A DNA stretch of 62,156 bases, the filler included, from Dugesia japonica (Eukaryota), in NCBI GenBank assembly GCA_001938525.1. It is 6 parts of 6 records of this genome, joined end to end, with 100 filler letters (N's around TTAATTAATTAA, not from the genome) between each part and the next. Parts side by side here need not be neighbours in the genome. Positions count along the whole stretch, not along the records: positions 10,980 to 26,036 come from MQRL01631562.1; 5 more parts are not named here. The stretch is one strand, 5' to 3'. A model generated the notes under the pieces. That model saw only the letters and a program-made list of their open reading frames with translations, made no database searches and was not told the DNA's origin. The translations under genes were made by a program, and so were the position numbers. Position 1 is the stretch's first letter; each line of letters opens with the position of its first letter. Positions 3,301 to 53,030 of the stretch are shown here, one piece after another.

Positions 3301-4605
3301 ATGCAGATGACTTTGGCTTCAAGGCGTATTGCTCACTCTATACATGAAATAACTGAGTCAGCCACTCAGATAAAAGGTAAATGAATTAAAAATTTTCATG
3401 TCCAAATTAATGCAATCATACAGATACTAGTTTAATTGGTCAGGAGGATTCTAATAATGCAGCTGATATAGCAGAAAATGAGTTGTTAGAAGCAGCTTCA
3501 CAAATCGAAATGGCAGCTAAAAAACTAGCCTTATTAAAACCGCGAAAATCTATAAAGGTAGGAATGTATATTTATAAATACTGCACCACCCACTTACATA
3601 GTGATTAATGTAGTTCTTATTCATTGTAGCTTTGTATGAGTGAGAATCTTGTATTTCATTTGTCTGTTTGTCTGACGTCAAATTAATATGACGACTTAAC
3701 ACAACTGCTGTCATTTGCTTACAAAATACCTTCATTAAATTGATTAAGTACTAGGATTAATATTCAATAATAATTATGTCTGAAATTTTAAAAACTTGTA
3801 GTACGTGAATTATTTAAGTATAAATTTAGTGTAAAATAAATAAAATATTTTATTCTGTGTCTAGAAAGAAACTGGTGAGGAGTATACTTTCGATGGTCAG
3901 ATAATTGTTGCTTGTGGCTCAATCGTTAGTGCAACATCACATTTGGTCAAAATGGCATCTCTTTCTCAACAAGAGTTGGTTGCATTAGGCCGAATGAAGC
4001 CTAGTGAAAATGTTTCCAGTCAACATGAAACACAGTGGACTCATGGTTTAGTTTCAGCAGTAAATATTTATTTCATAACTGAAATAATTTCATTTTAATA
4101 TTAATGAATTTATCGTAGGCAAGATTAGTAGCTGCAGCAACAGAAAATCTGAGCGACAGCGCCAAAGCTGTTGTACAGGGCAAAAGTGGAACAGATCGAT
4201 TAATATCGGCGTCAAAACAAGTTGCTGCTGGGACAGCACATTTATTATTAGCTTGTCAAGTCAAATCTGATCCTGATTCAATAACTAACCAAAGATTACA
4301 GACAGCAGGAGCTGCAGTCAAAAAAGCTACAGAAGCATTAGTTAAAGAGGCCACTGAACACAGAGATGTGCAAGATGGTTCGATTCCTTATACTTACGAT
4401 GGATCTAACAAGAGTATGGTCAGCTCTATGAGAAATGTGAATTTTACTTTCATTTGATATTTATTTTAAATTAATTCTTTAGGTTATTCAAGCTCAAGCA
4501 GACATTGTTGCCAAAGAAAGAGAACTGGAAATGTTACGCAATAAATACCAATCAATTCGGCAAGGTCATATTAGTACACATCCAGAATTTTTTAACAAGG
4601 ATTAA
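350..4605 (+). CDS. TLN: Talin, C-terminal rod and I/LWEQ (THATCH) actin-binding region; 5'-partial, 8 exons
   Basis: Phase-consistent GT-AG exons: 350-621, 2095-2291, 2338-2492, 3016-3376, 3424-3557, 3865-4059, 4119-4436, 4483-4605 (TAA). Peptides LNAVRDVAVAL, RGTRALEASLE, IAENELLEAASQIEMAAKKLALLKPR, QWTHGLVSAARLVAAATENL and LISASKQVAAGTAHLLLACQVKSD match the talin C-terminus as I recall it. Confidence 0.95.
744..1601 (+). mobile_element. Degenerate, internally deleted mariner transposon in talin intron
   Basis: Imperfect TIRs TAGGTTGAAGCTAAAGTTCG (~745) and CGAAAATTTGCTCCAACCTA (~1581-1600). Transposase remnants include KRPNRFGKKVMIFV**HFEEILHFELVPNGKAINA and IRMLADR*QKIV. Confidence 0.85.
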
Positions 4606-5129
4606 TGTTAAAATAATTTTTTTGTAAATACCACTATTTCAGACTAAATTTATTTTTAATTTCATTTAATAAATTTTAATTTTGCAAAATCTGATATTTT
4701 GAAATGTCTTCAATTAAATTTAGATGATTTTGCTTTTGAAACGGAACTTCTTTGATCATAGTGTTAAAATTAAATTATTAAGAACTATTTTTGATATGAT
4801 GATAGAGAAAAGTTTAATAGTGGTTCATTGATTTACGGGGTTTTAAAATTAGATTATAATGGTTTGATACTTAATTCTATTTTATCAGTTCTCTATTGGA
4901 CTGATCGGATTATCATTCGTTTTCAAGATTCAACTGGGCTACATTCTGATTTTCTTCTTGATTTCTTTGATAAGATTGCGTAATGTAATTTTCTCAAATG
5001 TGAATGAAAACATTGAAGTTTGTTTGATCTAATACGAAATAGCCGATTAATAATTTCGAGTTTTATATTTGAAATAAAATTAATTATTTGTTTATATTTG
5101 TTCAGGTTCTATTTAGACAGCTCCATTTT

Positions 5130-5290
5130 GATTTNTCTGAATGTAATATGACCTTATATAACTCCGCAAAGAATTTGAACTAGCGTTATAGATTTTCGGA
5201 ATAGAGCCTGTGACTCACAACACGTAATTCGGGTGCATGCTCGTATTCATCTGGTTCAGGTCTTTGTTCCTTGATACTCGCTTTGGTTCG
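5130..5290. repeat. Diverged fragment of the dispersed long TG..CA repeat family
   Basis: Shares AGATTTTCGGAAT.GAGCC..TGACTC and ATACTCGC blocks with 8080-8190, 24980-25140 and 56500-56690. Confidence 0.6.
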
Positions 5291-7497: not shown

Positions 7498-7516
7498 TAT
7501 AATACGTATCTTCGAG

Positions 7517-7968
7517 GTTACATTCCAATGACTTCGTTTTAGACTACTTTGCGAGTGAATTCTCGATCGTCTTTTAGCAACTAGCCTTGCTCATGTAATT
7601 TTAAAATTTTCATTTTACTATTGTTGCCTTTGCGAGCACGTGAAAAGCGAAATAAAGTTGGCCGTGACCGGATATTAGAAGCTGCAAGTCAATTCCTACC
7701 ATGTTATAGATTTGACTTTGGAATTTGTTTATAGTAATGCAGAACACAAGAGTCACCGAGAATTGACGTTGTCGCAAGCGTGCAAAAATAATTCGTCCAG
7801 TGATTATATTTCGAGAAAGATATTCAACAACCAATGGTGTGCCATTGCATAAACCCTTCTTCGGATTCAAATTTCTCAACAACATGACAATAGTCCACTC
7901 TTAAGCAATAATGTATGTGGTAGCATACCGGATTGAATTAAAAATTTGGTATTGAAATTTATAGCATC
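7517..7968 (-). mobile_element. Helitron RepHel PIF1-helicase C-terminal pseudogene fragment
   Basis: SGMLPHTLLLK..VMLLRNLNPKKGLCNGT, RQRQFSVTLVFCITINKFQSQ, VGIDL..SGHGQLY, ending TRKVV*NEVI. Frameshifted and truncated at 7968 by the adjacent repeat. Confidence 0.85.
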
Positions 7969-9839
7969 TGTTGGGATTTTACCCTAGGTCGGTTAATTTT
8001 TTATAACACTAAATCTAGGGGGTCGAATTTTATGTAAACTTTAATCTAGNNNNNNNNNNNNNNNNNNNNCCCGCGATGAATTTGAATCTGATGTCCCCAA
8101 AAAATCCAGATTTTCGGAATGGAGCCGTTGACTCGGAATCCGAGTACAGACTCGTACTCCTTTTGTTTGGGTCCAAACTTCATGATACTCGCTTGAATTA
8201 CAAATTATACTTATTAGTTATCTGTCATTAGCTTATTAGATTTCAGCTTATAACTTGATCATCAGGTTTCTCGTTATCAATTAGTGAGGTTCTAACTAAT
8301 TAAAATCTTTTCGTATTAGTGATTAAATATTTTTAACGGACTTTAATTACTACTTTTAGGTTAAAAATCAATACCCTATAGTTTTACTGTTATAAAGAAT
8401 AGCAGAATTAAACGAGTGAAAAAATTATATTCTAAATTTTATGGTTACTAGCACATAAGTTTAACAATTATAACAAACAACTAACGTGACTGAATCCCGA
8501 TCTGGAGCAAACACAACATTGGAGTAGACTGATTCTTTTATCAAACTTAACGATTCGAAGAGTCCACCCTCACTGTTTCTTCTCAAGTCGGAAATCGTTA
8601 CTTTTGATGAATAACAAAAATTACCGTTTTTAATCAATTCTTCGCTTCAAAAATAAATTAAATTTTATTTGTTACACTGGGTAAATTAGCTTGAAAATTT
8701 GATGAAAATGAATCGGTATATATACCGATTTATCTTCACACCCCAATTCCGTTTATTGGTTATTTGGAGTCTTACGATTTTTCTGACGTTTCTATGGGCT
8801 TGAACGTCTCGTGAGTTCTTTTTATTGGTGGTTATTTTAGGATTTTCAAATTATTGGTCAATCTTCAAACACTTATAACTTTTTTCCTTTTCTTGCCATG
8901 ATTTTCTAACTCTGATTTTTGAATTCATCGATTTTTCCTCTATCAGAAACCTTTAAATTGATAATTTTCACACCACTGGAAGTCGTCGTTTTTGCCATTT
9001 TTCACGAAATAATTATTTTTCTTTTAAAAATAATTTATTTTAAANNNNNNNNNNNNNNNNNNNNNNNNNNNNNNNNNNNNNNNNNNNNNNNNNNNNNNNN
9101 NNNNNNNNNNNNNNNNNNNNNNNNNNNNNNNNNNNNNNNNNNNNNNNNNNNNNNNNNNNNNNNNNNNNNNNNNNNNNNNNNNNNNNNNNNNNNNNNNNNN
9201 NNNNNNNNNNNNNNNNNNNNNNNNNNNNNNNNNNTCCATGTGATTTTCTTGATTTTGACTAATGCAATAATGGTTAATCATTAGTTTTTGTCGTCCTGCC
9301 ACATCTTTATTACTCCTTTTCTTCTTTGGTTTACTTATTTCAGAGTTGTTTCTTGCTGTGATTTCGGTTATTTCGTTGATTTTGATTACCAATCTTGACT
9401 TTTCTTTTCATTATTTCCTTCTTTTTAATTAATGAATCAGTTCCTTGGCTATCGTTTATTATTNNNNNNNNNNNNNNNNNNNNNNNNNNNNNNNNNNNNN
9501 NNNNNNNNNNNNNNNNNNNNNNNNNNNNNNNNNNNNNNNNNNNNNNNNNNNNNNNNNNNNNNNNNNNNNNNNNNNNNNNNNNNNNNNNNNNNNNNNNNNN
9601 NNNNNNNNNNNNNNNNNNNNNNNNNNNNNNNNNNNNNNNNNNNNNNNNNNNNNNNNNNNNNNNNNNNNNNNNNNNNNNNNNNNNNNNNNNNNNNNNNNNN
9701 NNNNNNNNNNNNNNNNNNNNNNNNNNNNNNNNNNNNNNNNNNNNNNNNNNNNNNNNNNNNNTTGTCTAATCGATTCTTTGTCCTGTTTCGTTATGGTTGC
9801 TCTATGTGCTCACTTGCTCCGATCGGTTTCCATGCCACA
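7969..9839 (-). repeat. Long (~1.9 kb including gaps) LTR-like TG..CA repeat with CCAAT cluster and TATA on the minus strand
   Basis: Colinear homology with 56480-57470. Multiple ATTGG boxes at 8755-8857 and TATATATA at 8717-8724. Termini TGTTGGGAT.. and ..TTTCCATGCCACA. Ends are approximate. Confidence 0.55.
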
Positions 9840-10061
9840 AAACCTAAAATACATTTATAATAATATTTAGATTCACATTCATTTTGACTACAGTGGTTTT
9901 AACAGTGTCTAGGTAAATTGATAGCGAGCATAAGATCAATATGAAGTAACTAAGAATTAATCAGTACATAATACATGGACCTTTAAATTCAACATACCAC
10001 ATTTATTACATAATTTACATTATACACCGATATTTATAGTTAATTATCATAAGTTCGTTTA

Positions 10062-10879
10062 TTAGACAAAGGTTCCTGTCAATCTACGAAGTGATGAGTA
10101 GCGACGTTTGTTGCTTCCTTCTGAATAGATTATCGAGCCGTCTGATGGTTCATTGAATGATTGATTCTGCCAGATAGGGCTTATTATTGCAATGGGCTTT
10201 GCTGGAGCTGCTTTGTTCCAGATTTCGTTATTATTTAGTTTTAGAGTTTGGATTTGATCGATTTTGCTTATATTTAGAGTTTCATCTGCTCTAGTTTTCC
10301 AGTTCTGTTGATGATCTGTTAGCTGCTTGTAGAACGTTTCTCTTTCCTCAATTATTTTCAATAATTTTTCATTGGTTGCTCTCTGTTCCTCTATGGTCTT
10401 CTCAGGTAATAGTTTAAAGTTTTGACATTGTATTTGGCTTGAACGTAAGACCTCTTTTAATTGGGATATATGGTTTCGGCTGAATGATATTTTTCTTTGT
10501 AAGTGGGCCAATTCTGTATCCCTTAATATTATTGCATCTCTTTTTCTTCCATTGCTTAATCTGCTAAGAACTTAAAATTTTGGCATTGTACTTGACTTAA
10601 TCGTAAAGCTTCTTCTAATCTGGGTATCCGGTCATCATATACATTAAGTCTTTTCTGCCAGTCTTCTGGTACTGACCGATACTTATCTTGTTCCACATGT
10701 GTCATTAATTGGTTTTCATTNAAAATATCAGGCGTTTCTACTGTTTCCTCTTCCTTAGTTACGTGTAACATACACAACTTGTTTGATCTTTCTATAATTA
10801 TAGCTAAGTCTTCACTACTTGCTTTAAATCGGCACCTTCTCATGGTATGTCCGCTTCTACCACAGTTGAAACATCTAGG
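10062..10879 (-). pseudogene. CCHC zinc-knuckle plus coiled-coil ORF (gag-like), frameshifted, 5'-truncated by scaffold end
   Basis: PRCFNCGRSGHTMRRC fits C-X2-C-X4-H-X4-C. Internal duplication (LEEALRLSQVQCQNFKFL / LKEVLRSSQIQCQNFKLL). Stop and frameshift near 10556; AATAAA overlaps the final stop. Confidence 0.6.
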
Positions 10880-10979
10880 NNNNNNNNNNNNNNNNNNNNN
10901 NNNNNNNNNNNNNNNNNNNNNNNTTAATTAATTAANNNNNNNNNNNNNNNNNNNNNNNNNNNNNNNNNNNNNNNNNNNN
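10880..10979. other. Artificial scaffold-joining spacer
   Basis: 44 N + TTAATTAATTAA (stops in all six frames, 10924-10935) + 44 N. Confidence 0.95.
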
Positions 10980-11289
10980 ATAATATTAATAATGTGTTAA
11001 CGAAAGTAGATAGATAGTAGCGGTCAACACCACCTGTTTGTGAAGACCCCCGCCCGTGACCTAATAAAATGTAATCCTAATGGATTTAGTTGTAAATTTA
11101 GAAATTGCATCATTAGGTAATATTACTTAATTTGGTGTTACTTTTTCCCTGTGTATTTAGTTGGGAAATTTTTTACACAAATTATGTCAAGATTNATTTC
11201 ATCGGTGAAATTTTACGTAATAGGATTAACTGGTGTTTAATTTTTCCTGTGTATTTAGTTGGGATTTTATTCAGTGAGATGGAATGAGG

Positions 11290-12150
11290 TCAAGTTTTGA
11301 TTGGTTCAGGTGAATTTGGCCGAATAATTTGCTCGGGTTTGAACAGTTTGGGCAAACTTGGTCGATTTTAGGTAATTTTTTGGTGATTTAGGCGAAAATT
11401 TCCTCGGGAATTGTTATTTTGGTCAATTTTTGGCTGGTTCGAATGATTTCGGTACATTATTTCTTCTGGATTGTTAATTTTTGGGTGATTTAGATAAAAT
11501 TGGTTTAAAATTTCCTAAGGTTTGGTCAACTTGGTAAATTTTTTGGGTGATTTGGTTAAAATTTTCCTCTGGAATAGATAGTTTGGGTAATTTTTGTATG
11601 ATTTTGTCAATTATATTTTCGGGATTAGTCAATTTGAGTAATTTTTTGACGATTGGGTCAATTTTTGGTTCAGGTGAACTTGGCTCATTTTTTGACGAAT
11701 CAGTCAATTATTTCCTTGGGATTGGTCAGTTTAGGTAATTTTTGGGCGTTTTAGTCAATTATATTTTCGTAAATAGTCAAATTGGAGCAATTTTGGGTGA
11801 TTTGGTTCAATATTTCCACCAGATTAGTCATTTTGGGTAAGTTTTTAACAATTTGGTCAATTATTTACTCAGTTTAGGTAATATTGTTTAAATTTTTCAT
11901 CGGTGAGGTCGAATCTGGGCAAACTTGATCAGTTTTGGGTTAACTTGGTCTAATTTTTCCTCGTGATTGGTCAGTTTGGGTAGCATGTGGGTGATTCAGT
12001 CAAATTTTTCATCGATCTGGTTTAATTTGGTTCATTTTTGGGTGATTTGGTCAATTATTTATTTGGTAGGGACAAACTTGGTTAATTATTTGCTCACAAG
12101 GGTAAGTTTTAGGAGAATTTGAATGATAATTTTCTCGGGCTAGCTAGTTT
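11290..12150. repeat. Degenerate short-period subterminal repeat array (TTGGTCAATT / TTTTGGGTGATT motifs)
   Basis: Dozens of diverged copies with roughly 10/20-bp periodicity immediately inside the left TIR. Confidence 0.7.
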
Positions 12151-12301
12151 GGGTTGTATTTTAAGGAAATTCATGATTAAAGTAGAATTTGTTTAAATTT
12201 TAAAAAATTTTTATGGGAATGTTTTACAAGAATCCGGGCAAACCGTTCATGTTGTTTAAATAATATGAAAATTTTAAATTTTTTAAATGAAATCTTTATA
12301 G

Positions 12302-13300
12302 TGTTGGGATGAAACACACCACTAAAAAGAAGGCAAAGTCGCCACAAATTATCATCATTACAAATGGAAAATACACAAAAATGGTTGAAATAAGAAGATA
12401 AATAGAATGGAGTCGGAAACCCATTAAGGAATGAATAAAGTAAAACTGGTTAACCAAAATCAGCATTCATCCACTTTAATCAATTAGAAGAAATTAAAAT
12501 TTATTATATAAAAAAGAAAAGAAAATATCCAATAAAATATTTAATTATAAGAAAATATCAATTAATTAAGAGGAAAAAATAAATGAAAATGAAACCCAAA
12601 TATGTTTTCTTCGAATAACTTGACTCCAAAAAGTCACCAGGACTCGTAAAAAGAAATTTTGAGTCGGGATTGGTATCGGGCAACAAAATTTCTTAGTCCG
12701 AAAACGTTGCGACCATCAAGAGGACCGTCACAAGGGTTAGAAGATTAAACCAATGAGAACCTGGAAAATAAATATATAACATAGAATAAAAGCTCACCTG
12801 ATTATCCAAAAATAACTACCAACGGAATCGCAGAAAAGTCTGCAAAATTCCAGAAAAGTAGCATCAACCCCAATGAAAACGTGTCATTTTAAACTAAAAA
12901 TAACTGGCCAATGCCAAACAAGTCGGGGTGTCTCGGGAGTCCTATAAAAGGACCCCTGTTTTAGCAACAAAAACACACGAAAACTTAACAAAATATTTTC
13001 ATCAACTATAACGAAAAATAACTTTATCAGCTTCAACAGGAATAATTTCATCAGCTACAACTACAAAAGAAATAATTCTTGTAGCTAATTAACGGAACTT
13101 TCATCAATTCGACAAGAAACATTTATTCTCACCGAAGTACCTTAAAAAACAATTTACAATTTAGTAGGTATTGGTTGATATTATTTCAAGGGCAAAAGAA
13201 AATCGCCACAAAAGTATCATTCAGCCTAGCAAAATAGCCACTGGAGAGAGCCTTTATTCGAAGAAATACTACAGTTAATATTGGCAATACCGTTTGACCT
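12302..13300 (+). promoter_or_regulatory. Left arm of inner inverted repeat; Pol II promoter-like
   Basis: Starts TGTTGGGATGAAAC. CCAAT at 12750, 12870 and 12908; TATAAAA at 12943-12949. An ATG-free ~200-nt stretch follows, then candidate donor AG|GTATTG at 13168. Confidence 0.5.
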
Positions 13301-14673
13301 GTTGCAGAAATTCCTAAATTTATTCTCAGAGAAAAGTAAAGTTTTATTTTGTTTGGAAAAAAAGTTTAAATATGAATACCTTAATAAATGTATAGATATT
13401 AAAATTTTTTAACTTATGATTTCATTACCAAATATCTTATATATAACCGAGAGTTTATTTGAATGATAATTTTTGTTATATGAAAATTTTTTAGACCCAA
13501 TAACTATTAAATTACCTAAAAAGAAAAGAATGAAGTCAAGTTCCGTTCCATTGTTTGTGAAAATAAATGGGGCATAATCAAAATATAATAACGCTAAGTC
13601 GTAAATCCACCATTATATTATCAGAATAGTATCAACTAGAAAAATGAACAATAATTTTTTGTTATTATGATGAAAAGAGAAACCACAGTTTTTAACAATT
13701 TATTTATAACAAAAAATGTTACCTCGGGTGAATCTGGGAAGCTCCATAATAAAATGTCTAAGAGTAACATATCCGCTAATATCCACTAGATCATGGAATT
13801 CCTTTTTATGTTTCTCCAAATTGGGACAGAAATAACTATATTATTTTCTAATCGATAGAATATTAATTGAGTTGGAAATAACTGCAGAATTGGCATTAGC
13901 GGTTACATCAAGAGATGGTACGTAGCTTCCGTGCGACGATCATATTTTCCATTTGATAATTATGAGTCATTATAATTCTCCTACACACCTATAACGAGGT
14001 GGTATTTGCACATACAAACTTGCCTAGATTCAATAATGACCAGTTTTCTAAGGAAACGGTCGCTATGCAACGATAACATATGTAAATTTAAAAGACCCAA
14101 ATTAATAAGATTTTTTCTATTTAATCGCGATACTTTATCCTTTTATTATTAATAGCAATTTCGGGAGTATCCATTATTACTACCGCTAGCAACACTATTA
14201 GTGCACATCAGTCTAGTAAACTTTTGACTCTTCTTTTATAACAAATCAGCACTCCCCTTTTATTATCAGGGATTGTAGCCCTATACCTAATATTATTCCC
14301 GGGATTAATGTCCAGAGTTAGGATGGTTATTGTTATCACTATGCTTTCCCGTATTGATAAAAAATAATTTTATTAGTAATATTAAAATAATTTTGCGGTT
14401 GTTTAATTATCATAGCGATATGTGTTTTTAATACTATTATTATTNNNNNNNNNNNNNNNNNNNNNNNNNNNNNNNNNNNNNNNNNNNNNNNNNNCGATAT
14501 GTGTTTTTAATACTATTATTATTGTTCAAATAGGTTTTTATGATAATATCCGCGTAATTATCTCTTATTCTTGGTTCTAGTCCTCATGTTGATACGGTCA
14601 GTCAGGAATAACCGTTTATGTTTGGAAACCACGTTCTGAATTAAATGTTGCGATTAATAATTTCCCTTTTTAG

Positions 14674-14828
14674 TTATGCAGACGAAATTATATCGTATCT
14701 TGCGATGGATAATAAGGCGGCGTCAAATTAGCCGGTACAAGCAACTGTTGGCTCACTTGCTGACAAAAGGGGAAATCGAACATCCGGATGAGACGGACCT
14801 TTGCTGTCTCGCCGAGATGTTTCTTTAA
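14674..14828 (+). CDS. Orphan cassette ORF A (50 aa from ATG 14676; MQTKLYRILRWIIRRRQ...)
   Basis: Polypyrimidine acceptor TTTCCCTTTTTAG ends at 14673. Locally GC-richer open frame. AATAAA at 14929. Confidence 0.35.
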
Positions 14829-14998
14829 AATAAGAAAGTAGACCTGGGCGAGGAATGACCTTCGGCTTCATTGAGATTCGTCTGACACTGAATACAAACC
14901 TTTATTTTTTATGTGTATTAGCTATTCAAATAAAATATTCATTATCTTTTGATGCTATGTTATGTGTGTTACTATTTATTTTCTTTTGTTGTTCTTAG

Positions 14999-15357
14999 AA
15001 ATGGAATCCATATCGGAAAGGGTCATAGATCGACGAAGCCGCCGAATAATTTTCCGACGGTACCACAACCCTCACAACCGTGACGCCGGGATTTTAGTTG
15101 ACAGGTCCAATCTGCCTCTGATAGAATCCATAATATCTCGTATAAGAGATTTTGGGGAACGACAACAATACCAGAACTGGACAGGCTCCGATCGCACTCT
15201 CACGACATCGTTCCAGTATCAGCCTTCCGCTCCAACTCCTGCGCCCGCCGTGCAAGCTTTTATCTCGAATCTTCTCTGGGGGGTCAGGAAACCCAGTGGA
15301 GTGACTGATATCGAAAATACAGTCCTTAATATTGACGATAATGTTGATCCTCATTAA
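14999..15357 (+). CDS. Orphan cassette ORF B (118 aa from ATG 15001; MESISERVIDRRSRR...)
   Basis: Acceptor TTCTTTTGTTGTTCTTAG ends at 14998. GC-richer intact ORF. AATAAA at 15379 with a downstream T/GT-rich tract. Confidence 0.55.
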
Positions 15358-15644
15358 TCTTTTTGGTCTTCTGATGTGAATAAATAAGCGTTTTACTTGC
15401 GTTAATTTTTGTCTTTATGTCGAGTCAAATAAACTTCGGCTGTAATAACAAAATGTTATAGAACTTTATAGACTTCATTAAAAAGTGAAATAATAATACC
15501 TCAAGGTAATGTGGTTAAACCGAGTTAATAATACCTACACCACTCACTGTTAATTTTAGCCATGGTAGACCAGGCTACCTAGTGTTTCCTTTAAATTAAA
15601 AACCTGTTAAGATTATACCAACCTTTACTATGTTTGTATTTCAG

Positions 15645-16003
15645 TGCACTCATCATTGAGTAGATCTCAGGCCCAAAATAAAAAGTTACGGGAAACCAGT
15701 GAATACATAGAACTCACATGGGATCTGTACCGACTCGCTAAAAGGCGGTGGGAGGCAGAAACTGTGGCAGCAGAAGCTAAGGTTAAACGTTATAAGCGTA
15801 AGTGCCTTTCTTTTAAATCCGAGGCAGAAGCTACTCGGAATCAAGAGCGAGTATGGAAACTACAGGTCGAAACGTTTACTGAAATTATCAAATCGTATCA
15901 AGAGCGTGAGAACCAGCTAATGGAAAATATTTTGAAGCTGAGGGCCGCTACCCCGTTAACTCCCCTCCTGATCGATAAAGGCACTCAGACGAACCGCTCC
16001 TGA
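15645..16003 (+). CDS. Orphan cassette ORF C, coiled-coil-like terminal exon
   Basis: Acceptor TGTTTGTATTTCAG ends at 15644. 119-codon charged helical ORF with no early ATG. AATAAA at 16035. Confidence 0.55.
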
Positions 16004-16127
16004 ACTGTGATTTTGCATTATTTCTTTTGTCTTTAATAAATTATTCATTTGCATAAAGTTTTCCTGTTACTTATTTTCTCCGAATTGTAAAATTGGTGTT
16101 CACTACTTAATTATAATTTTCTTTTAG

Positions 16128-16510
16128 TACCTCGAATTGTGCTCCCAACTTGCTTGAAAAGATGCCACCCTGTCCTACGTCGTTTATTACTAGAACGCCA
16201 CTTGAAACGCAAAACAGACCAGGCTCTTCTTAGGCATCTTGCCCAGCGGGACAAGCTCATAAAAAAGCTGGATCTGATAGTCCGAAAGCAAAACGACTTG
16301 GCCATCCAAACAAAGGCCCTAGAAGTAGAAACTAGGCAACTACTGCTAAGAAAAATAGACTTCTTAAAGCAGTATATCGCCGACTTATCCAGCCAGATAG
16401 GTAACTCAACTGAGATTCAATGGAGCGATGACGATGACATCGCGGCCTTCAATTTTCTGGCCACCGACCCAGACCAATGGTTGGACCCTAGTGTAATAAA
16501 TGAGTTGTAA
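16128..16510 (+). CDS. Orphan cassette ORF D, coiled-coil with acidic/aromatic tail, terminal exon
   Basis: Acceptor TTTTCTTTTAG ends at 16127. Intact frame with no Met. Tail WSDDDDIAAFNFLATDPDQWLDP. AATAAA at 16520. Confidence 0.55.
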
Positions 16511-17029
16511 ATGTGTGGCAATAAATGTTTCAAGTATCACTGACTTAAGTTTTGATATAAGATAAGGGAAAATAATGAACCCGAATAGAAAGGTTTATGG
16601 CGTGTACCTCCCATTAAGAGAGAGGTCAACCACCGTATGCTGAAAACCTGACCTAGGGACGTCAGGGTAAATTCTTGAAAGGGTTCCCCTGAGGGCTGTC
16701 TTTTCCCCAGCCACAATCTTTTTCACGCAACTAAGGTTGCGTGCCAAAATGTTAGTCGACTGTTTTCTCTAACTTTGGAAATTATGACATTCATTGGGGA
16801 ACAGTCATCATGAATTATTTTAACCAAGTGGAACTGGTATGATAAATATTTTGTTAATTCTTTTCTATACTATGTAAATAGTATGTTAATAGAGAAATAA
16901 TTGATAAGTTTTGTGTTAATTTGAATAATAATAAAATATAACATGAACAGTGTATTATGATACCATTTATTATACAATAATTAGAAATAAAAACGTGAAA
17001 TTTAGTTTATAAATAATTGCAAGGTTTTC

Positions 17030-17916
17030 TTTTCTCTGCAACGGGTAGTTAAATGTGATGTACTTGATTACGGTATAGAGCTGCTTCTAACGGAGTTCCA
17101 ATTTGTTTTCAAATCGAGCACTTTCTTTCTATAGTTCCCAAACGGATTCAATTAAATGATATTCTTTAAAAAAACAAATCGTGATCTTACAGATAGTGAA
17201 TAGATGTCTGAGTATTGATTTTCACAACATCTTCTTGATAATTTATATCCGTGATTCTACGACTAGTTTAATAAAACTGCTAAAATTTGGTTTTTTTGAG
17301 ATGATTTTCTCTAATTTTCTGGGGGTTTAAGTATCGTTTTTCACGACACCACGACTTGTTCGGCATAGGCCAGTTATTTTTATTTCCAGATTCTGCTACC
17401 TTATTGGTTCTGGTGCCAATTTTTTAACATTTTTTCATGTTTTTAGACATGTCATTGGTGCCTATTTTTAGAATGGCACATGACAATGATTCCTTTATTC
17501 TAATTTTATTTTTGGTCTAGTTTTTTGGACCTTATAGCAGACTTCTAGATGATAGTAAGGTTTTTTGATTATAAATTTTAGATGCTCTGCCCTTTATTCT
17601 TCTGAAATTCTCTTATCCCGGGCTCCTGTGATTTTCTGGAGCAAAGTTATTTGAAATAAACGAATTTTCGGCTTAATTTTAATTATTTTTTGTCTTCAAT
17701 TAATTAATATTTTTTCGCAATTAAATATTTTTTATTAATAATTTTCTTTCTTCTCGATATATTAATTTGTAATTTCTTTTAATTACTTATATGGAAGGAT
17801 GTGGATTTATATTATCTAAGTTCCTGGGTGCCGTCTGTTTCTTATTTTATGATAATTAATGCTTCATGACCCCCTTTGGTCTTATTTCTTTTCCAACTGA
17901 GAGTTTCACACCAACA
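17030..17916 (-). repeat. Right arm of inner inverted repeat (diverged inverted copy of 12302-13300)
   Basis: Reverse complement starts TGTTGGTGTGAAAC and contains AAAAATAACTGGCCTATGCCGAACAAGTCGTGGTGTC, matching 12896-12932. 17615-17760 matches 12515-12650. Confidence 0.7.
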
Positions 17917-18634
17917 GTTGTACTTCGAATAAAGTTTCTTTGAAGACTTAACTAATTAATTTTAAAAAATATTCAAATAAATAAATTAATTGATTTGAAA
18001 GACTAATAATAGGTGTAAGTTACTGATAAACTTTCTGAAAAGTCCATTAAATTCAATAAATTTTTATTTATAACACAAAATTTCAAATCTTCAAAAAACT
18101 ATATTTTTAAAAGCTGAATATTTAAACAAACATTTTAAATATTTTAGAAAATTCTTGAAATTTTTTATGATATTTTCTTCCAACTTTAAATTGCGATTTT
18201 CAATTTTTAATCCTTAAATATTTTAAAAAATTCTTGAAATATTTTATAACGTTTTCTTCAAACTTTAAATTGCAATTTTCAATTTTTAATCCTTAGTAAA
18301 TTTAATTGGTTAGATTTTTAAAGAATGAAAGAATAAAGTTATATTACAAGTTGATGATTAATTTGTTTATAAACACTTTAGCTTTACTTTGAGTTCGTTA
18401 ACTTCTGAGAAACGTTATTTTGCCATGCCTCTTTTTAATGCATTGCTGTAACTCTCCATCGTATTTATATTATCTGTTTATATTTTTAATGGATTTTACT
18501 ATATTAAGGTGAACAAATTATTGGATTATTCAGGTTATTAGTTGTAAAGTATAAATTCAGTGTGAATTATAGAGTTGACTATATTGAATAAGCGATGAAC
18601 AGATTAAACCATTAATTAAATAATCAATAGGTAA

Positions 18635-18750
18635 ATGATGATAGCGAGTATTCTATATGTTATTTCTTGGTGATAACGAGTATTGTATATGTTAATAGCT
18701 GTTGGTAGTAAGTATTGCATATGTTAAGAGCTGTTGATAGCGATTATTAT
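18635..18750. repeat. ~31-32-bp tandem repeat, about 4 copies
   Basis: Unit approximately GATAGCGAGTATTGTATATGTTAATAGCTGTT. Confidence 0.7.
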
Positions 18751-20943
18751 GTATTTAAATTTAATGAAATCAAATATTGTACTGTTTTTATGTTAAGATT
18801 TGATGAAAGTGAAAGTTGTGTTTGTCAATTTACAGTGATGATCAAAATTATTGTGTAATCTTTCATTGATTCAAAAAAAGTTCATGTAAATTTCAGATTA
18901 AATTACATGACTTCAAAAACATTAGATAATACTATATCGCTATTTCTTACTTTCTCATTCTTAGCCTCTCGCAGTTACCCTTCCTCACTTGATCCTTCTG
19001 AATCTTGTTTATTTATCTACCTTAAAACAAAGAAACATACTAAGAAAGAAGTGAAATCTAATTTAAATAAGAAATAATTGAATAAGTATTACGTTTTTGT
19101 TAAAATGTTGTTCTAAATAATAATAATAAATTATAATTTAGTGGGATCACTTTCAACAATTGGTTTATTGAATGTATCTGGTATAATAGTCTTATATTTA
19201 ATTATAAAAACCTATATTTTTCAGATTGACACCCATATTTTTATGATAAATTCCATATTTTCATGATAAATTCCATATTTTTTGCTAAAACCCATATTTT
19301 CAGGATATTACCCATATTTCACATTAAACCTATATTTTAATGTTGAGATCAGTATTTTTAATGATAAGATCTGTATTTTCTATGTTAAACTCTTATTTTC
19401 TAACAATGTATCTGAATATTGGGTATCAAAAGAAAAAAGATTCTCATTAAACGAAAAAGTGATCAGGGTTTCCAATGTGCAAGCAGAGAACCAAGGAGCA
19501 AGCAAAGAAACAGAAGGATAATCAGTCGATTAAAATATACTAAAATTATTATATTATTTGCAATAAGAAGCGTATCATATCAGCTTTTACTCACTATCAT
19601 TCAGTCTTAATGTATACTTTCATCTTTAAATGTTACTCTTTAAAGATTAAGATCCAATAGAAATTAAAGAAAAGTATAGATATTTAAGGTAAATGATGGA
19701 AAATAACTAAAAATATGACTAAATAGAGGTAAATTCTGGAAAATAAGCAGAAATGAGGTAAATAGGTTAAATATAGTTAAATGTTGAAAATGGTTAAAAA
19801 TATGGCAAAATGGTATAAAATAGATGAAAAGGGGCAAAAATAGACAAAAATAGAGTAATTAAGCATATTAAATGATTGTATGTATATAATAAATGTAGTA
19901 AATAATTAATGCATAAATTTACTCTAATAAATATTTTTCTATGTCAAACTCAAATTTTCTAATGGCAAAACTTGTATTTTATATCATAAGTCTTTCATTT
20001 AAAATGATAAGTCCATAGTTTTCCAATGATAAACCATTATTTTCTAATGTTAAAACTCATATTTTCAATAACGAAACCATGTAATAATGTAGAAGTTATA
20101 GTCAAAAGATTGATTGTTTACTAACAATTTAATTGATAATTAATTATTTAAAAGAAAAATAAACCCATAAAAACTAAGGTGCGTGCAAGTAACCAAGGAG
20201 CAAGCAAGGATGAAGGCAAAAAGTGAATGAATTTATTGTAAGAAATGCCTATTTGTCACAAGATAAACCTATTATTTTCATGTTGAAACCATATTGATCC
20301 TCAATTGTAATGAACTTAATCCTTTATCCAATTAATTAAACTTAGTCTCAATATTGATATTCAAAGCTTATTACATAAATGTAAATAAAATATGGAGAAA
20401 TAGAGTAAATGGGGGTAAAAAAGAGAGAAAATATAGGAAAATGGGGCAGAATATTGAGAAAAAATACACAGGAAAATTTTAAACACCAGTTAATTCTATT
20501 ACGCAAAATTTCACCGATGAAATTAATCTTATGACATAATTTGTGTGTAAAACATTTTCACAACTAAATACACAAGGAAAAAGTAACACCAAATTAAGTA
20601 ATATTACCTAATGATGCAATTTATGATGCAATTTTTAAATTCCCAACTAAATCCATTAGGATTAAATTTTGTTACGTCACGGGGGGTCTTTGCACACAGG
20701 TGGTGTTGACCGCTAATATCTATCTACTAACGAACAATAATAATCAAACATATAAACTAGTATCATATTGTTGCCTGAAATTCATATCACGTATGACGAA
20801 AACTTTTTCATAAAAACCAAGACCATGTGCTAAAATTCATTTTATTAAATAATACTATTTTAATAATGCATGTAATATTACAAGGGAATCATCCATCATA
20901 AATAATAAATAAATAATTGACAACCCTTTTTTAAAATATTTAT

Positions 20944-20984
20944 TTGCTATCAATTTCAACGAAATAATCGTCTTCGTCAGGCAA
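20944..20984 (-). ncRNA. Minimal type I hammerhead ribozyme motif in Penelope 3' pseudo-LTR
   Basis: Minus strand reads TTGC-CTGACGA-A-GACG(ATTATTT)CGTT-GAAA-TTGA-TA-GCAA. It has the core, stem II, a near-palindromic stem III, a UA cleavage site and stem I TTGC/GCAA, ~80 nt past the GIY-YIG stop. Confidence 0.65.
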
Positions 20985-21062
20985 TTAAACAATATTAAAA
21001 CAAACTTTTTACAAAGTTTAAATGATTATATAATTTCAATTGAGCAATATCAATAAAAAATT

Positions 21063-21660
21063 TCAATAAAATAATTTTAAGAGCGATGTTGAATCCGTCA
21101 ACTGAACATTAATTTTAGGGTTTAATGCTCTTATGAACAAAGCTTCGCACATCACTCTCTCCCAATAATTATTAAATTCACTGCACAGAATTTTAAAATC
21201 AGAACACCCTATTGATTTTGTACATTTTCTTCGATGCTCAACAATATTACTATTACCACTATTTCGACTTTGCTCATGAACTCTGCTGCAGAGATGACGG
21301 GAAGTCTCTTCGATGTATGTGGCGTTACACCCATTACATTTAAATGGATAGACCAGATCAGAGCACAAACCTTAAGGGGTTACAGATTTATTACTGAACA
21401 TATTTATAACCTTATGAGATTGAGAAACAACCTTTATATTTAAAATATTCTTAAGTGCATTTTCAACCGAAAGTTTGAATTTTTTAAAGCCTTCAGAATA
21501 AGGCAATGAAGTCTCTCTTTAGACTCGAATTCAAAATCTGTATTAGAGATTAGAAGGGTTCAAACACAACTCGCCATCATAGTATGATCCTTTATTAAAA
21601 CTTGTTTTCCCTATATCATTTAATATGAACTCTATTAATAATTATTCGACAGCATTTTAT
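21063..21660 (-). mobile_element. Penelope-like retroelement fragment (GIY-YIG endonuclease)
   Basis: LPYSEG... linker, then SDLVYPFKCNGCNATYIEETSRHLCSRVHEQ...EALFIRALNPKIN. In-frame stop upstream. Confidence 0.9.
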
Positions 21661-22619
21661 TAGGTTTTCTCTCTACTATTTAGTATCATTTCATTATATT
21701 TTTACTCTTTACCATGATGATTTGTCTTTATCATTTAGTTTATATTATATTATATTATAGTTTCTTTTTGTCACTTCACGATGATCTCTCGATATCATAT
21801 AACAATGTTGTATTATAGTTTCTCTTTATTGCTTCAACAATGTTTTATAATGGTGGATGATCTTGCTATTTATTCGATAATTAGGTTATTTAAAGCATCT
21901 CAGTTTAAAATATAACATAGAAAATTACTTTTTCCTTAAAATTGTTTTCGAGAGTTGATGTAACGAGTAAGATGCTTCTTAAGAATTTTAGCTATTAATC
22001 ACTAAGAACTCCAAAACAAGTTTTTTAAGAAATTTTTATGATTAAATAGACTTATTTTCTAGTTTTTTTGTACCTTTCTGTATCGTCAAATTTTGACAGA
22101 TACATGGTAGGCACCCAATTTAGTTTTTCTTAAATTATTGAATTGTGCGATGCCTACTCGCAGATTTGGTATATATCTCACAATTTAGATATGATTTATT
22201 TTTCAGTTGTTTTTTAGAGCAATCTGTGCTCTCCCTATGTTCATACCGTGATATGTTTTATCATTATATTTTCATTACTACATATAGTTTGTCTATTAGT
22301 TGTACACGGTGCTCACCCGCTCACACAGAATCTCGAAATGTGTTTGTTGCTCAGTCAATACATAATGTTAATGTAGTTGCCGTATGATTTTTCTAGAATT
22401 TTTTCTGAAATAACTTGTTTTGGTGTCGATGAAATCTGTGATTGATTGAAAATGATAATTTTTCAAAGTTTCTAGCCAATTATAAATAGGGATAATTACA
22501 TGATTCTTTGTAAGTAATTTAATATGAATATAAAAATATAACTTAAGTTTTTAATCTTTCATTTCATATAACTTTCTTTTCCGAATTCTAACTATTTCTA
22601 ACTCAACATTCCGTTGAGA

Positions 22620-24110
22620 AAATTTGATTGTAACGGCAACTCCGAAAATGTCGTAACTTTCAGGACCCGGTGCTTTGATAAACAAATCTGTACATCCATA
22701 ACATAGATTCTTTCCGTCCCCGTGCGAACACCCTGCGACCATCTTTATAGCTCCCGGAAATTATGGGGGTCGGTCTAATCTCTGCAAGAGATGAGTATTT
22801 TGTACAATCTCTTGTACAAGCTTTTAAAATGCTTGTATGCCTAGATGATATTGTACGAGATCTTGTCAATCATTGCTTGATTCATGCGGCTACTAAGCAC
22901 ATGAAAAGTTTAAATTAGTGTTCGACTGACAAAGCACTGAACTGGCTTTTTCTAGATACCACCAAATTAAATCTCAAAAGCTGGTGGTCCAAGGTTCATG
23001 ATGCAATAACATATCTAAATCGTGAGCTTAACCTGCAAGTAAAATTCAAGAGAAATGAACTGGGAATTTGCTTGCAGGTGATAGATTATATCGATGAAAG
23101 AAATTATTTGATTTCATTTAAAGATCGGAGATCCATGACTAAATTGCTTCATGGTCTATTTCATTTGAAACACACTAGAAAGTGGAATGCCTTTTTAAAA
23201 ACTGGTGCGTTTCCACTGCGATTGGTGCATCTTCATTTTCTAGTAAACCTTAGTATGATGGCTCATTAAAACCTGAGCATTGGCGGTTCATCTATAGGAC
23301 AAGAACAAACACTCTTCCTGTAGATAGCAATTACGGTATGTCCTTTAAATCCTCGAGAAAGTGTTCTTATCATTTAGAAATTCAAGCACACGTTTTTTTG
23401 TTACTGTGCACCCTCATCAGCGTTCCGTACAGGGCGCCACAATGATGTGCTTGAGTTTCTTGCTAGGTTTATTAGAACTACATCAACCTTCAATGCCATA
23501 GTCGATCGCACCTCTGACCTTGTTAATAGGACTGATCACGTTGACTTCGGCTTAAAAATGTTAGGAAGAAGCATATTTTCCTAATGGATGTGAAAATCCC
23601 TTACGACACATCCAGTAATCTAAAATTAGCCAGGGTCTCGAACATAAATAAATACACACCACTGAAAGAGGACATTCAGAAAAACCTTCTAAATTGGAAA
23701 GTTCTCCTTGAGACGATCTCAGTAGGATGTCTGAGATCATGGTGTGTTGAAAATGTGGCAGTGCTTAAACAGGTTTGGTTACGCGCTAATCTGATTAGAA
23801 AATTTTCACTTGTCTTGACCAGGAAATGCATAGCCTGATTGAGTGGGAATTGAAGTTTCCACAACAAACAGGCTGACACTTTTGATTATGAAAAGATCCA
23901 ATGTGAGTAGAGCCAGATGGACTGATGTGGAAGATTTCAATTAGGGTTTCCAAACTTTCCCTCCATTTTCTTGCACTTTCTTCTTATTTCTTCTTTTTTT
24001 GTTTTGTTTGATAGCTTTACGCTGGCCGAACCAAGACATGATTAAACTTGGGGAGGATTTTCTAGCTTGCAAGATGACTTTATTTATCGCGGCGTGTTAA
24101 ATACGAATAG
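22620..24110 (+). mobile_element. 5'-truncated, decayed non-LTR retrotransposon with restriction-like endonuclease (NeSL/Utopia/R5-like)
   Basis: GVGLISARDEYFVQSLVQAFKML, WRFIYRTRTNTLPV, RHNDVL, IFLMDVKIPYD..LKLAR..NKYTPL, ISVGCLRSW. Many stops and frameshifts; 3' end approximate. Confidence 0.8.
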
Positions 24111-24959
24111 TGCATAATATTTATTTAATAGTATAATTTAATAACATTTACTGCAATATTAATAAATTCAGATTTTAGACATTATAATTTAATTGTTGTT
24201 AATACTTTTTATTAATAATAATAATCCTAACTAAAATTATTATAAAATAATATTTCTCGTTTACTATTCTTTCCATTGTACTATAATAATTTTATTTTTG
24301 ATAATAAGGATATGCAATTTAATAAATAATTATTTGTTCAAGTCTACATAATAATAATATTTATTATATTATATTTCTACATGTATATCAGTGATAAAAA
24401 TATAAATAATAATTTACATTATCCATTCAGTTCCGGTCCAGTTTTTATTTTCAGCTATTGTTTTAATTGTCGTTTTTCGAATTTTATCCTTTTCTTTCTT
24501 TTTCTCGGTTATTTTTCATTTTAGTTTTTTAATATTCTGTTATTTTATAATTTATTTCTTGTTTTAATTTGCAGGATTTTATTTCGGTTTTACTCTTTAT
24601 TCGTTTCGATTTATGGGCCTTTTATTATGTTTTGTTCATTTATTTTCTAAGTGGTATTCATTATGTAGTTTAATCTGAAATATTTCTTCGAGCATTTAAT
24701 TTGTAATTAATGTTTCTCTAAGCACTATTTTTATTTAATTTTCTCTTTACATATAATTTGATTCTTTTATTTTTTTTCAATCGTTTCTTTGAGCTAGATT
24801 TTATTATTATCTATAATTTTCTTTGGAGCATTCGTTAATTTTTTCATTTGATTTTGGTATTTATCTCTTGATCATTTATTAGTTTGTTTCTTCTTTAATT
24901 CTTTTATTTAATTCATTATCTTTTTTTTTTGATTAAATATATTGGAATTTCTTCTAGGC

Positions 24960-25145
24960 AGCTCAGTTTTAAGTTATATCTAGGGTGACGTGACCTAGGG
25001 AAAACCCGTGAAGAATTTAATCTAGTATCTCCCTTCTAGATTTTCATAATGGAGCCGGTTACTCGTAATCCCTAGTTTGAGTGCATGCTCGCATTTTTTT
25101 GGTTCAGTTTCACACTTCAATACTACTCGCTCTGGTTCCACAGAC
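24960..25145. repeat. Fragment of the dispersed long TG..CA repeat family
   Basis: TCTAGGGTGACGTGACCTAGGGAAAACCC...GATTTTCATAATGGAGCCGGTTACTCGTAA matches 56536-56632. Confidence 0.6.
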
Positions 25146-26036
25146 AACATCGTGAGCTTACTGATTAGAGTGGCTGTTATTGAATGAAGTGTAAACTAGT
25201 ATCTTGTTACAACTATTATTATCGTTGGTATTACATTTCAAAAGAAACGCGAGATGTATAATCGTTAGTCAATCCTCAAGATTTTTCATAGATTTTTAAT
25301 GATGCGAATCTGATAAATAATCAAGTTTTTAGTTTGAAATTCATTATTATTCTTATTATTATTCTTATTGCCACATTTATTATCTGGGATAAGCACTAAG
25401 GTTCATATTAAGTTATACTCATCATGTTTCTTATCCAGTAACATTAATATTACCAGTATCCTTATCTTATTACCAATTATTGTACGTGGTTGTCGCCATT
25501 AATCATTATCATTACTGCCAATCGTTAAATCTTATTGTCATTAAACCCATTCATTAATTATTCATTTGTTATCATTATGTTTAATAGTTGTCATCATTAT
25601 CGCTATTATTATCATTGTTACCCTTACGATCATTATTGTTACGATTATAATCATTGTCATTATTATTATTAATATTATATTTTATTATAATCACTATATT
25701 ATCATTATTATATTGATAATTATTATTATCAATATTAAAGCAAACAAAGTCAGAAATGATTACGAGTAACTGTTTACTAATAATTATTCAAAAAGGCTTT
25801 ATTTTAATTATTTTATTGTTATTATCGTTGCCCTTGATTGAATTGTATATAAGATTTTTTTAAATCATTATTAATTGATATTACTACAAATATTCATCAT
25901 TACTATGATTTTTAACCAATCATTTTATCTATTATTTAATATAAATAAATATTAATTAAATATTTAATCCAAAATATAATTTTTACTAATCATTAGTATT
26001 AAGTAAAGAAAATTTATTTAATGAAAATTATATTAT

Positions 26037-51512: not shown

Positions 51513-52101
51513 TACCTGAATTCCAAAGGATTTAGCGTAAGAAAGCAAAAATTTTAAGTTAGTAATACATAATTTTGATAATTTATCATCATGTCCACTT
51601 TCCATTAGATGAAACGCTAATCCATGCAGCTTTCTAAATTCTTTATCACTGACTGGAGAATTATTAATTAATCTATCTGCATTTTTTATTTCTAAAACTC
51701 TTTTGTGATTTTTTAAAATGCATGTTTTTTTGAAGTTTCCGCTGATAGCATAGTAATTAGCAATTTCATTATGACGAGCTTTAAAAATTTCTGAATTCTT
51801 TGTATATCTATTTAAACAGGAATTAAAATAAGTAAACAAAATAATTTTTTAAAAATGAAAACCTTTCCAATGCACATTGATGAATTAAATTGTGATACCA
51901 AGAAAGTGTAATTTTACCATCAATTTGTTTTCTTACTAAATATCCTGTCAAATCTGAGTGAATTCGAGCCCAAAGTAAAGAAGGTAATCGAATTACTCCA
52001 GGAATTGGTGGATCGTGATATTGGTAAACTTCATTTAAAACATCATCTTGTAAACTAAGAAGGTCCTCTATTTCTAATTCACTTAAACCATTATATCCCA
52101 A
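44010..52101 (-). CDS. NACHT and WD-repeat domain protein (NWD1/NWD2-like), internal exons, partial
   Basis: Phase-consistent exons 52101-51863, 51807-51516, 51305-51119, 47728-47612, 47568-47356 and 47307-47131. A probable further exon lies at ~44374-44010, with the linking exon not found. GLSELEIEDLLSLQDDVLNEVYQYHDPP..RLPSLLWARI..WYH and PIQLLGQL match the post-NACHT region of NWD proteins. Confidence 0.8.
44935..45066 (+). pseudogene. Degenerate 28S rRNA fragment
   Basis: ATGAATGGATTAACG, then a deletion, then CAGCCAAAAGAACGAGCTTGG..AGCGGAAAAAGAAGACCCTGTTGAGGTTGACACTAGTCTG..AGAGGTGTAGCATAAGTGG. Matches the conserved eukaryotic LSU with substitutions. Confidence 0.85.
45164..46391. repeat. 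Pair of ~150-bp direct repeats (45164-45316, 46240-46391) ending in a Maverick-like terminal motif
   Basis: Both copies run AATAGATGGTTTTT...GAGGTGATCCAGTACGCTACTATCTACCTAT. Confidence 0.8.
48372..48580. repeat. ~49-bp tandem repeat, about 4 copies, running into a gap
   Basis: Unit approximately TTTAAAACAAAAAATCATTCGCTATATAAATATTTAATTTTACAAAT. Confidence 0.85.
49680..50740 (-). mobile_element. Degenerate mariner transposon in NWD intron
   Basis: KALLWFWWSYEGVISFELL, LFQQDNTTP and HPANSPNLAPSDFYIF (YSPDLAPSD motif). Frameshifted; ends approximate. Confidence 0.85.
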
Positions 52102-52514
52102 CTGAAAAATAATGAATAAAAATTTAATGAATAGAAAATTTCTAAAAGTTTTAATTTCTGAAAAATAAAATTATTATTGGAGCATCATAGTGTTATTATA
52201 TAGAAATTCGAATATTCTCAATGAAAGTTTACAAAAATTCTACTTATTATAATAATCAACAAACTATAAAATCATGTAATATTTGGTAAATTTCATTTTA
52301 ATTTAATTATTCAAATTTTCCTAAAATTAAATTTATNAAAAGTTTTATTATTTGAACAATATTTTGTTATTTTTTGTGGTTTTAGTTTATGGAATTACCA
52401 AGCAATCATAAAAATGAATATATTTTAATATTAAGAATCTATAAGACAAATTAGAAAAGATACTTAATATCTTAATATCGGTAAAAATTAGTCTAGGCCG
52501 AAGTAATAATAATA

Positions 52515-52882: not shown

Positions 52883-53030
52883 GCAGTAAGAAATCCTAGC
52901 TATTTATCACACATTTATCATGTTTTCATGTATATTATATATATATATATATATATAATTCATTTAATATAAAAGCTTAGATCAAAATTTTGGTTTTATT
53001 AATTGATATTGGATAAAAATTCGATATTTC

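Follow-up and report, generated by a model that had tools for sequence, protein, structure and literature searches.

The adenovirus major late unit has one promoter and a common non-coding leader, which is joined to alternative 3' splice sites paired with polyadenylation (poly(A)) sites. The accessory mRNAs of complex retroviruses (foamy virus bel, HIV, MMTV sag) encode small regulators with short host-binding motifs, and retroviral accessory mRNAs usually share the single poly(A) site of the 3' long terminal repeat (LTR). Solo LTRs are usually regarded as promoters without genes. In the MDG1 elements, premature polyadenylation after the small open reading frame (ORF) sORF1 is described as giving rise to a short RNA with accessory content only, in addition to the full-length transcript (PMC11952523). 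The env gene of the springer clade is described with a start codon, AU/G, that is completed by splicing (bioRxiv 10.1101/2023.08.03.551782). Burro/GYPSM1, a giant Ty3/gypsy element of planarians, is given a total length above 30 kb and an internal region of up to 25 kb, which implies very long LTRs (PMC6431247). Here we analysed a stretch of 62,156 nt of the Dugesia japonica genome (assembly GCA_001938525.1), called the window below, to which all coordinates refer. It contains four tandem cassettes, named A to D, each made of a pyrimidine-rich YAG acceptor, an ORF and an AATAAA signal. On balance, we take these cassettes to be accessory genes that a large LTR retrotransposon of an animal carries inside its terminal repeat of about 4.4 kb, and predict that each is joined by splicing to one short non-coding leader.

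The four cassettes have the following layout.
14674-14934, plus strand: cassette A, with its ATG at 14676, stop codon at 14826-14828 and AATAAA at 14929; 50 amino acids.
14999-15384, plus strand: cassette B, with its ATG at 15001, stop codon at 15355-15357 and AATAAA at 15379; 118 amino acids.
15645-16040, plus strand: cassette C, whose exon begins with TG, with a stop codon at 16001-16003 and AATAAA at 16035; coiled-coil-like.
16128-16525, plus strand: cassette D, whose exon begins with TA and has no Met, with a stop codon at 16508-16510 and AATAAA at 16520.
The acceptor-ORF-AATAAA units described in the original prediction were all recovered, with exon starts at 14674, 14999, 15645 and 16128 and 10 to 12 pyrimidines in the 14 nt before each YAG. 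As it had also stated, the long frame opens two nucleotides past the AG in all four cases (50, 118, 118 and 126 codons for A, B, C and D), and the remaining two phases at the same acceptors hold only 4 to 34 codons. The AATAAA signals lie 101, 22, 32 and 10 nt past the stops of A to D; additional copies are found at 15428 and, within ORFs, at 15677 and 16495. The claimed GC richness held equally, with a GC content of 0.45-0.47 across the four ORFs against 0.23-0.31 in the spacers, and steps in GC that coincide with the ORFs.

One cassette rule, applied to the whole window on both strands, returned 18 rows (13 on the plus and 5 on the minus strand), four of which were A to D. When 14495-16600 was shuffled in tiles of three different sizes, 3000 times for each size, no trial produced four or more cassettes; three or more were seen in 3, 3 and 0 trials, respectively. 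A shuffled ORF stayed open with a probability of 0.049 for A, 0.0026 for B, 0.0007 for C and 0.0013 for D, in agreement with the earlier claim that B to D are intact (P ≤0.003). Neither Pfam nor PHROG gave a significant match for the cassette ORFs. The shuffles, the openness of B to D, the coincidence of GC steps with ORFs and these empty family searches all argue against the view that ORFs and signals arose by chance in repeat DNA or that the ORFs are pieces of one polyprotein. We consider such an origin extremely improbable, even though the ORFs are without homologues and AATAAA is common in AT-rich DNA (21 copies in 12001-18000). The phase shared by the four cassettes is, taken alone, weak evidence. 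The longest frame of 229 background acceptors was distributed 65/68/96 over the phases, from which simple arithmetic gives P of about 0.05 for four cassettes sharing one; moreover, splice phase is relevant for C and D only, because A and B have their own ATG. When the cassettes were compared with one another at the DNA level, none of 28 pairs exceeded all 100 shuffles (2/100 for the best pair), and a blastp match between A and the C-terminal half of D (E 0.02-0.05) gave only a hint of relatedness.

Third-codon GC reached 0.46-0.56 in the four ORFs and 0.23-0.28 in three host exons, a roughly twofold difference, so the four ORFs are not host-like. Splice and poly(A) signals of host type would suit a gene with alternative last exons that belongs to the host or derives from a host locus by capture or domestication. 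Such a gene is very improbable given this codon composition, the absence of a homologue in the searches of D, C and B, and the nesting of the array in two mobile elements.

The original prediction had recognised none of the proteins, and no homologue of A to D emerged from the searches made (Pfam and PHROG, large protein collections for B, C and D, and PDB sequences for A). Searches of protein collections at near lengths yielded 0 of 19 candidates for D and 0 of 8 for B; C had no match among 1.84 billion representatives and none in viral contigs (0/24). PDB sequences contained no match for A, and the atlas matches for D and B were all below 0.9. In metagenomes, 3 of 231 stretches were retained for D, and the one of these three that was inspected proved to be a chance match in an off frame of GC-rich, bacterial-looking DNA. 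The structure search that had been proposed for predicted models, a Foldseek viral search with the D model, gave a single match with an E value of 9. At the DNA level, the conserved upstream motif had 0 matches in viral or prokaryote contigs, an Rfam search over 7500-24000 gave 2 chance matches only, and no tRNA genes were found.

The element that carries the array belongs to an LTR-like family, since both of its ends match relatives, and the array fills the stretch from its TATA box to its 3' block. The parts of the element and the related copies in the window are listed here.
12302-16717, plus strand: LTR-like element with the array, about 4.4 kb; its right end is uncertain (about 16712-16803).
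12302-12942, plus strand: putative U3-like, A-rich region, about 75% identical to the inverted copy R (17342-17814).
12943-12951, plus strand: TATA box, candidate promoter, TATAAAAGG.
16574-16717, plus strand: 3' terminal block, common to the LTR-like relatives X, Y, Z and W.
17342-17916, minus strand: R, inverted truncated relative of the 5' part of the element, with no TATA box and no array.
About 9043 to 7969, minus strand: X, LTR-like relative, which ends with CCCAACA, the inverse of the TGTTGGGG start.
10062-10879, minus strand: broken gag-like frames directly 5' of X, with a CCHC zinc knuckle and then an internally repeated coiled-coil-like stretch.
56423-57946, minus strand: Y, LTR-like relative of about 1.5 kb including gaps, which starts with TGTTGGGG and has a 4-bp duplication, ATAG.
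24950-25150: Z, isolated 3' block of the family.
5150-5290, minus strand: W, isolated 3' block of the family.
The 16-mer at 12302 agrees with the start of Y at 15 of 16 positions and with the start of R at 13 of 16, and these are its sole matches in the window at three mismatches or fewer. The 5' terminus of the element, TGTTG at 12302, fits the TGTNR pattern of Ty3/gypsy LTR ends (PMC2836005). A profile of the 3' block, trained on the four relatives X, Y, Z and W, found one further match in the window, at 16574-16717 (E 6.9e-5; 17.4 bits against 3.3 bits at most in the reversed-window control), and an X/Y upstream profile matched weakly at 12675-12806, in the same orientation (E 0.008). X and Y are about 80% identical over 347 bp and have TATA-like boxes at a comparable place (8724 and 57122). 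The zinc knuckle 5' of X lies on the same strand as X and scores 21.1 bits against a Pfam cut-off of 20.8; the coiled-coil frame beside it had no long relative in the search. Judged from sequence only, the array-bearing element has a candidate internal promoter of LTR type (TATA 12943) and poly(A) signals (the AATAAA sites).

Several observations weigh against assigning this element to an LTR. For the element starting at 12302, no target duplication was found on the right, where a clean CA end is missing as well (candidates 16712-16803); the window contains no partner LTR, and neither a primer binding site nor a polypurine tract was recognised in it by eye. Beyond the 3' block the element resembles X and Y only weakly, and downstream of the TATA box it does not align with them (180/200 and 97/200 shuffles as good). 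The carrier of the array would act like an LTR and probably is one, without displaying all of the LTR hallmarks. After their own TATA-like boxes, X and Y both have a frame of about 55-60 codons with a Cys-stop at the aligned position. The DNA of this frame aligns (0/200 shuffles as good) and the protein similarity is not significant; it is possibly a one-gene version of the array. A Ginger transposon, with 12302-17916 as a single element bounded by terminal inverted repeats (TIRs), was considered and rejected: the flanks differ (ATAG and GTTG), the repeats are only about 75% alike and no transposase is present. A perfect hairpin with an 8-bp stem and a 4-nt loop (16724-16743) lies just past the 3' block of the element; reading it as a Helitron end was abandoned, as no clean CTRR/T end was visible by eye.

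The LTR-like element is itself enclosed in an outer shell bounded by two TIRs.
11005-11256, plus strand: left TIR, preceded by AACGAA at 10999-11004.
20462-20728, minus strand: right TIR, 85.6% identical to the left one and followed by AACGAA at 20729-20734.
The shell (11005-20728) measures 9.7 kb; its TIRs are about 260 bp long, and the 6-bp duplication that flanks them, AACGAA, is perfect; TIRs and a 6-bp duplication are among the features described for Mavericks (PMC8097293). Both ends read AGTAGATAGATA, starting with AGT, and AGTAGA is not exactly (AGT)2 or (AG)3. The shell is filled with tandem repeats of 51, 79, 32 and 20 nt, and no pPolB, integrase or capsid gene was seen in it, the longest stop-free frames being 77 and 83 codons. 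Compared with non-autonomous Polinton/Maverick elements as described in PMC8097293, it shares the TIRs, the 6-bp duplication and ends that start with AGT; the core genes are absent. We read the shell as an old non-autonomous Polinton-like element which served as a landing site for the LTR-like element. Alternatively, the array could belong to the Polinton-like element, as an adenovirus-type transcription unit of a DNA virus with the inner inverted repeats as promoters. The array does lie between TIRs with a perfect 6-bp duplication, the inner element has no duplication of its own, and Polintons are described as carrying accessory ORFs and as related to adenoviruses (PMC6431247, PMC8097293). 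However, the inner element is related at its two ends to repeats that lie outside the shell, and one of these repeats has a 4-bp duplication. No stop-free frame of the shell exceeds 83 codons, and its TIRs look older than the open ORFs. Ownership of the array by the Polinton-like element is therefore improbable.

We now turn to the way in which the cassettes, taken as genes of the LTR-like element, may be expressed. Two candidate features follow the TATA box.
12970-13163, plus strand: candidate non-coding leader exon, ending in A; its start site is assumed.
13164-13169, plus strand: candidate shared donor, A/GTAGGT, the top of three listed donors in the ATG-free zone by a crude U1 score.
No ATG occurs in 12960-13371, a span of about 400 nt past the TATA box (P 0.001 for 12970-13371; P 0.13 for its absence in 12970-13163 alone). 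Five upstream ends were joined to the cassettes in silico, and full-length A, B and C were obtained with just one of them, the leader that ends at 13163. This leader would provide a purine at -3 for A and B, and build the start of C as A/TG. The host talin gene, annotated by hand, uses an A/GT donor as well. The original prediction of one promoter and a shared exon spliced to alternative terminal exons is kept as the best model, with the difference that the shared exon is probably non-coding and would give one letter. The two donors it had put forward did not stand. The open phase-1 frame upstream of 13918 (27 codons) has no Met, and a leader to 13917 would start with a 7-codon upstream ORF; the open phase-1 frame upstream of 15506 (11 codons) is without Met too.

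Other results count against the leader ending at 13163. One of the five tested ends was set at 13138, one base off, and the real site, 13137, also follows A. In the ATG-free zone, 7 of 13 GT sites follow A. Further downstream, the donors at 13728 and 14554 have higher scores, and the exons they would close end in G and C, respectively. Finally, D, in which the predicted lack of a Met was confirmed, gets no AUG from any donor tried. The same LTR-borne genes may then be wired in another way. C and D would receive a coding exon that has decayed or lies outside this copy, for which the peptide derived from gag in idefix env offers an example. Otherwise, a short promoter and exon would serve each cassette separately (for instance donor 15506 for C). 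The higher-scoring donors agree with such wiring, as do a donor-like AAG/GTAATG at 15506, which would leave a 139-nt intron before C, and a Met-less 60-codon frame at 13230-13412 with a donor-like site at 13336. An env joined to an upstream peptide is described in the ZAM, Beagle and idefix clades (bioRxiv 10.1101/2023.08.03.551782). On the other hand, the frames above 13918 and 15506 have no Met, the element contains a single TATAAAAG-type box, and the depletion of ATG past the TATA box fits a non-coding leader. We regard these other wirings as unlikely, if worth keeping in mind. The frame at 13230-13412 (plus strand) lies in the ATG-free zone and includes an amphipathic stretch; it could represent another exon of the leader or else the remains of a cassette.

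The original prediction had named an operon resolved by spliced-leader trans-splicing as its alternative. The distances from AATAAA to the next acceptor (70, 217-266 and 93 nt) compare with the gaps of 300 nt or less by which flatworm operon candidates are defined in PMC12582326. However, the flatworm leaders reported in that source all end in ATG, and such a leader, joined to the four acceptors, gives products of 13, 10, 5 and 10 residues, none of them in the frame of an ORF. A leader would need a final A to start C. Trans-splicing is thus disfavoured and quite improbable, and the cis-spliced leader ending at 13163 is retained in what follows.

The proteins themselves offer some clues to function. 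A has a basic N-part followed by an acidic, Cys-containing motif, and its 3' end may be damaged. LxCxE is the pattern of Rb-binding proteins; A was rejected as one of these because it contains only LxCxxE. B has an Arg-rich N-terminus and a PSAP motif at 15223-15234, and its structure prediction was of low confidence (pLDDT 44), with no fold. PSAP is a TSG101 ligand in retroviral Gag. C carries an LC8-type DKGTQT at 15974-15991, which is C-terminal and follows the coiled-coil-like stretch; DKGTQTN agrees with the LC8 motif [DS]Kx[TVI]Q[TV][DE] at 6 of 7 positions, and this motif is described as typically flanking coiled coils (PMC3078936). The PSAP of B and the LC8-type motif of C are two rare matches among 18 motifs (P 0.015 and 0.005 each); it speaks against them that both were picked by eye before the statistical test. 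For D, a single helix was predicted over residues 7-92, with 63 residues at pLDDT ≥90. A net charge of +11 over the N-terminal 60 residues contrasts with one of -8 over the C-terminal 30, and the tail is acidic and aromatic. As modelled, D is like a basic-zipper transactivator, and the bZIP Pfam profile had no match in it. C may act as a coiled-coil dimer clamped by LC8, B as an Arg-rich protein with an ESCRT-type PSAP motif, and D as a transactivator-like protein with a basic helix and an acidic tail; overall, the cassette proteins are predicted to be regulators that hijack the host.

Combining these elements, the TATA box at 12943 would direct initiation close to 12970, and the leader, free of ATG and with A as its last base before the donor 13164, would join one terminal exon at a time. 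The last A of the leader would be the -3 base of the own ATG of A and B, and would complete the start codon of C (A/TG). Each mRNA would end at the poly(A) site of its own cassette, which would make the products mutually exclusive. The junction of D would read AUA in the present copy, so that translation of D would begin inefficiently or its start is defective. The unspliced read-through RNA of a complete element would be the genomic RNA, and the choice between splicing and polyadenylation may switch between accessory-protein mRNAs and replication. It is a difficulty for this scheme that the genomic RNA must read through at least four AATAAA sites. In HIV, U1 bound at a donor suppresses a poly(A) site, and U1 at the donor of the leader could suppress the cassette poly(A) sites likewise. 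A wider proposal, which we make tentatively, is that the LTR of a planarian giant retrotransposon has become a self-contained multigene virus-like operon. It would have one promoter, a leader whose final A shapes the context of some start codons and completes others, four or five mutually exclusive terminal exons and a splice/poly(A) switch, and encode regulators including LC8 and ESCRT mimics and a transactivator, which solo LTRs would supply in trans.

If true, a leftover LTR would be a self-contained accessory-gene unit, and many "dead" repeats could make regulatory proteins in an animal. The multi-kilobase length of some LTRs would be explained, and accessory control in the style of complex retroviruses would extend to Ty3/gypsy in an arrangement not seen before, where every gene has a poly(A) site to itself. 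Split start codons conceal such genes from standard annotation. The model predicts exact junctions and is hence cheaply testable; planarian piwi-knockdown RNA-seq is among the data described in PMC8532177.

Two further features lie just upstream of cassette A.
14270-14386, plus strand: candidate fifth cassette, small or decayed, with an acceptor, 31 hydrophobic codons in the shared phase and ATTAAA 16 nt further on.
14445-14494: assembly gap (N's), with an exact 29-bp duplicate on its flanks.
The fifth cassette has no start codon at the junction and no Pfam match, and makes a weak case. The gap looks like an assembly artefact. Elsewhere in the window, host genes and a transposase fragment were recognised.
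350-4607, plus strand: 3' end of host talin (Pfam).
51826-52170, minus strand: NWD1-like exon, host.
52664-52969, plus strand: Mos1-type transposase fragment (HTH).
53925-54278, minus strand: PIG-A exon, host.
The window has short AT-rich introns and a low overall GC, which together with these four matches point to an invertebrate animal as the host. By eye, a frame at 21063-21371 (minus strand) resembles the GIY-YIG endonuclease of Penelope-like elements, with no such Pfam match, and a decayed non-LTR element of R2/NeSL type at 22900-23850 (plus strand) has a CCHC and restriction-like endonuclease look. At 30547-31220 (plus strand), a frame that looks by eye like the gag of an ordinary gypsy element, with decay further downstream, likewise had no Pfam match. 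A MITE-like family with a common short terminal inverted repeat occurs at 37761, 42402, 43255 and 61195.

Ty3/gypsy elements are known to have accessory small ORFs, split start codons and premature polyadenylation, each taken singly. A row of four to five separately polyadenylated, spliced genes within an LTR is apparently undescribed in the literature covered: no such array inside a Ty3/gypsy LTR was found there, the original Burro account (Grohme 2018) and Repbase lying outside that coverage, and the portions of PMC13524379 and PMC11410931 covered hold nothing on LTR genes. The cassettes are like sORF1 and sORF2 of the Drosophila MDG1 group (412, Mdg1, Stalker, Blood), which are described as small accessory ORFs past an LTR promoter (PMC11952523). 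The MDG1 frames, as described, are two in number, unspliced and upstream of gag, whereas the array has four or five, apparently within the repeat, and a separate acceptor and poly(A) signal for every one of them; no similarity between the two sets appeared in database searches, which involved no direct alignment. Burro/GYPSM1 has a CCHC gag, an Smc-like coiled coil and accessory ORFs according to PMC6431247, and the CCHC/coiled-coil frame beside X is similar. Compared by description only, the Burro/GYPSM1 account in that source gives no genes within the LTRs, unlike the array. In springer env the split codon is AU/G and serves one env gene beyond pol (bioRxiv 10.1101/2023.08.03.551782), whereas in the array A/UG is predicted, the genes are small orphans and one leader serves several exons. 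The likeness to the adenovirus major late unit drawn in the original prediction is one of logic and not of descent, because the carrier is an LTR-like repeat, albeit within a Polinton-like shell. Set beside the complex retroviruses, the array differs in that each of its genes has its own poly(A) site.

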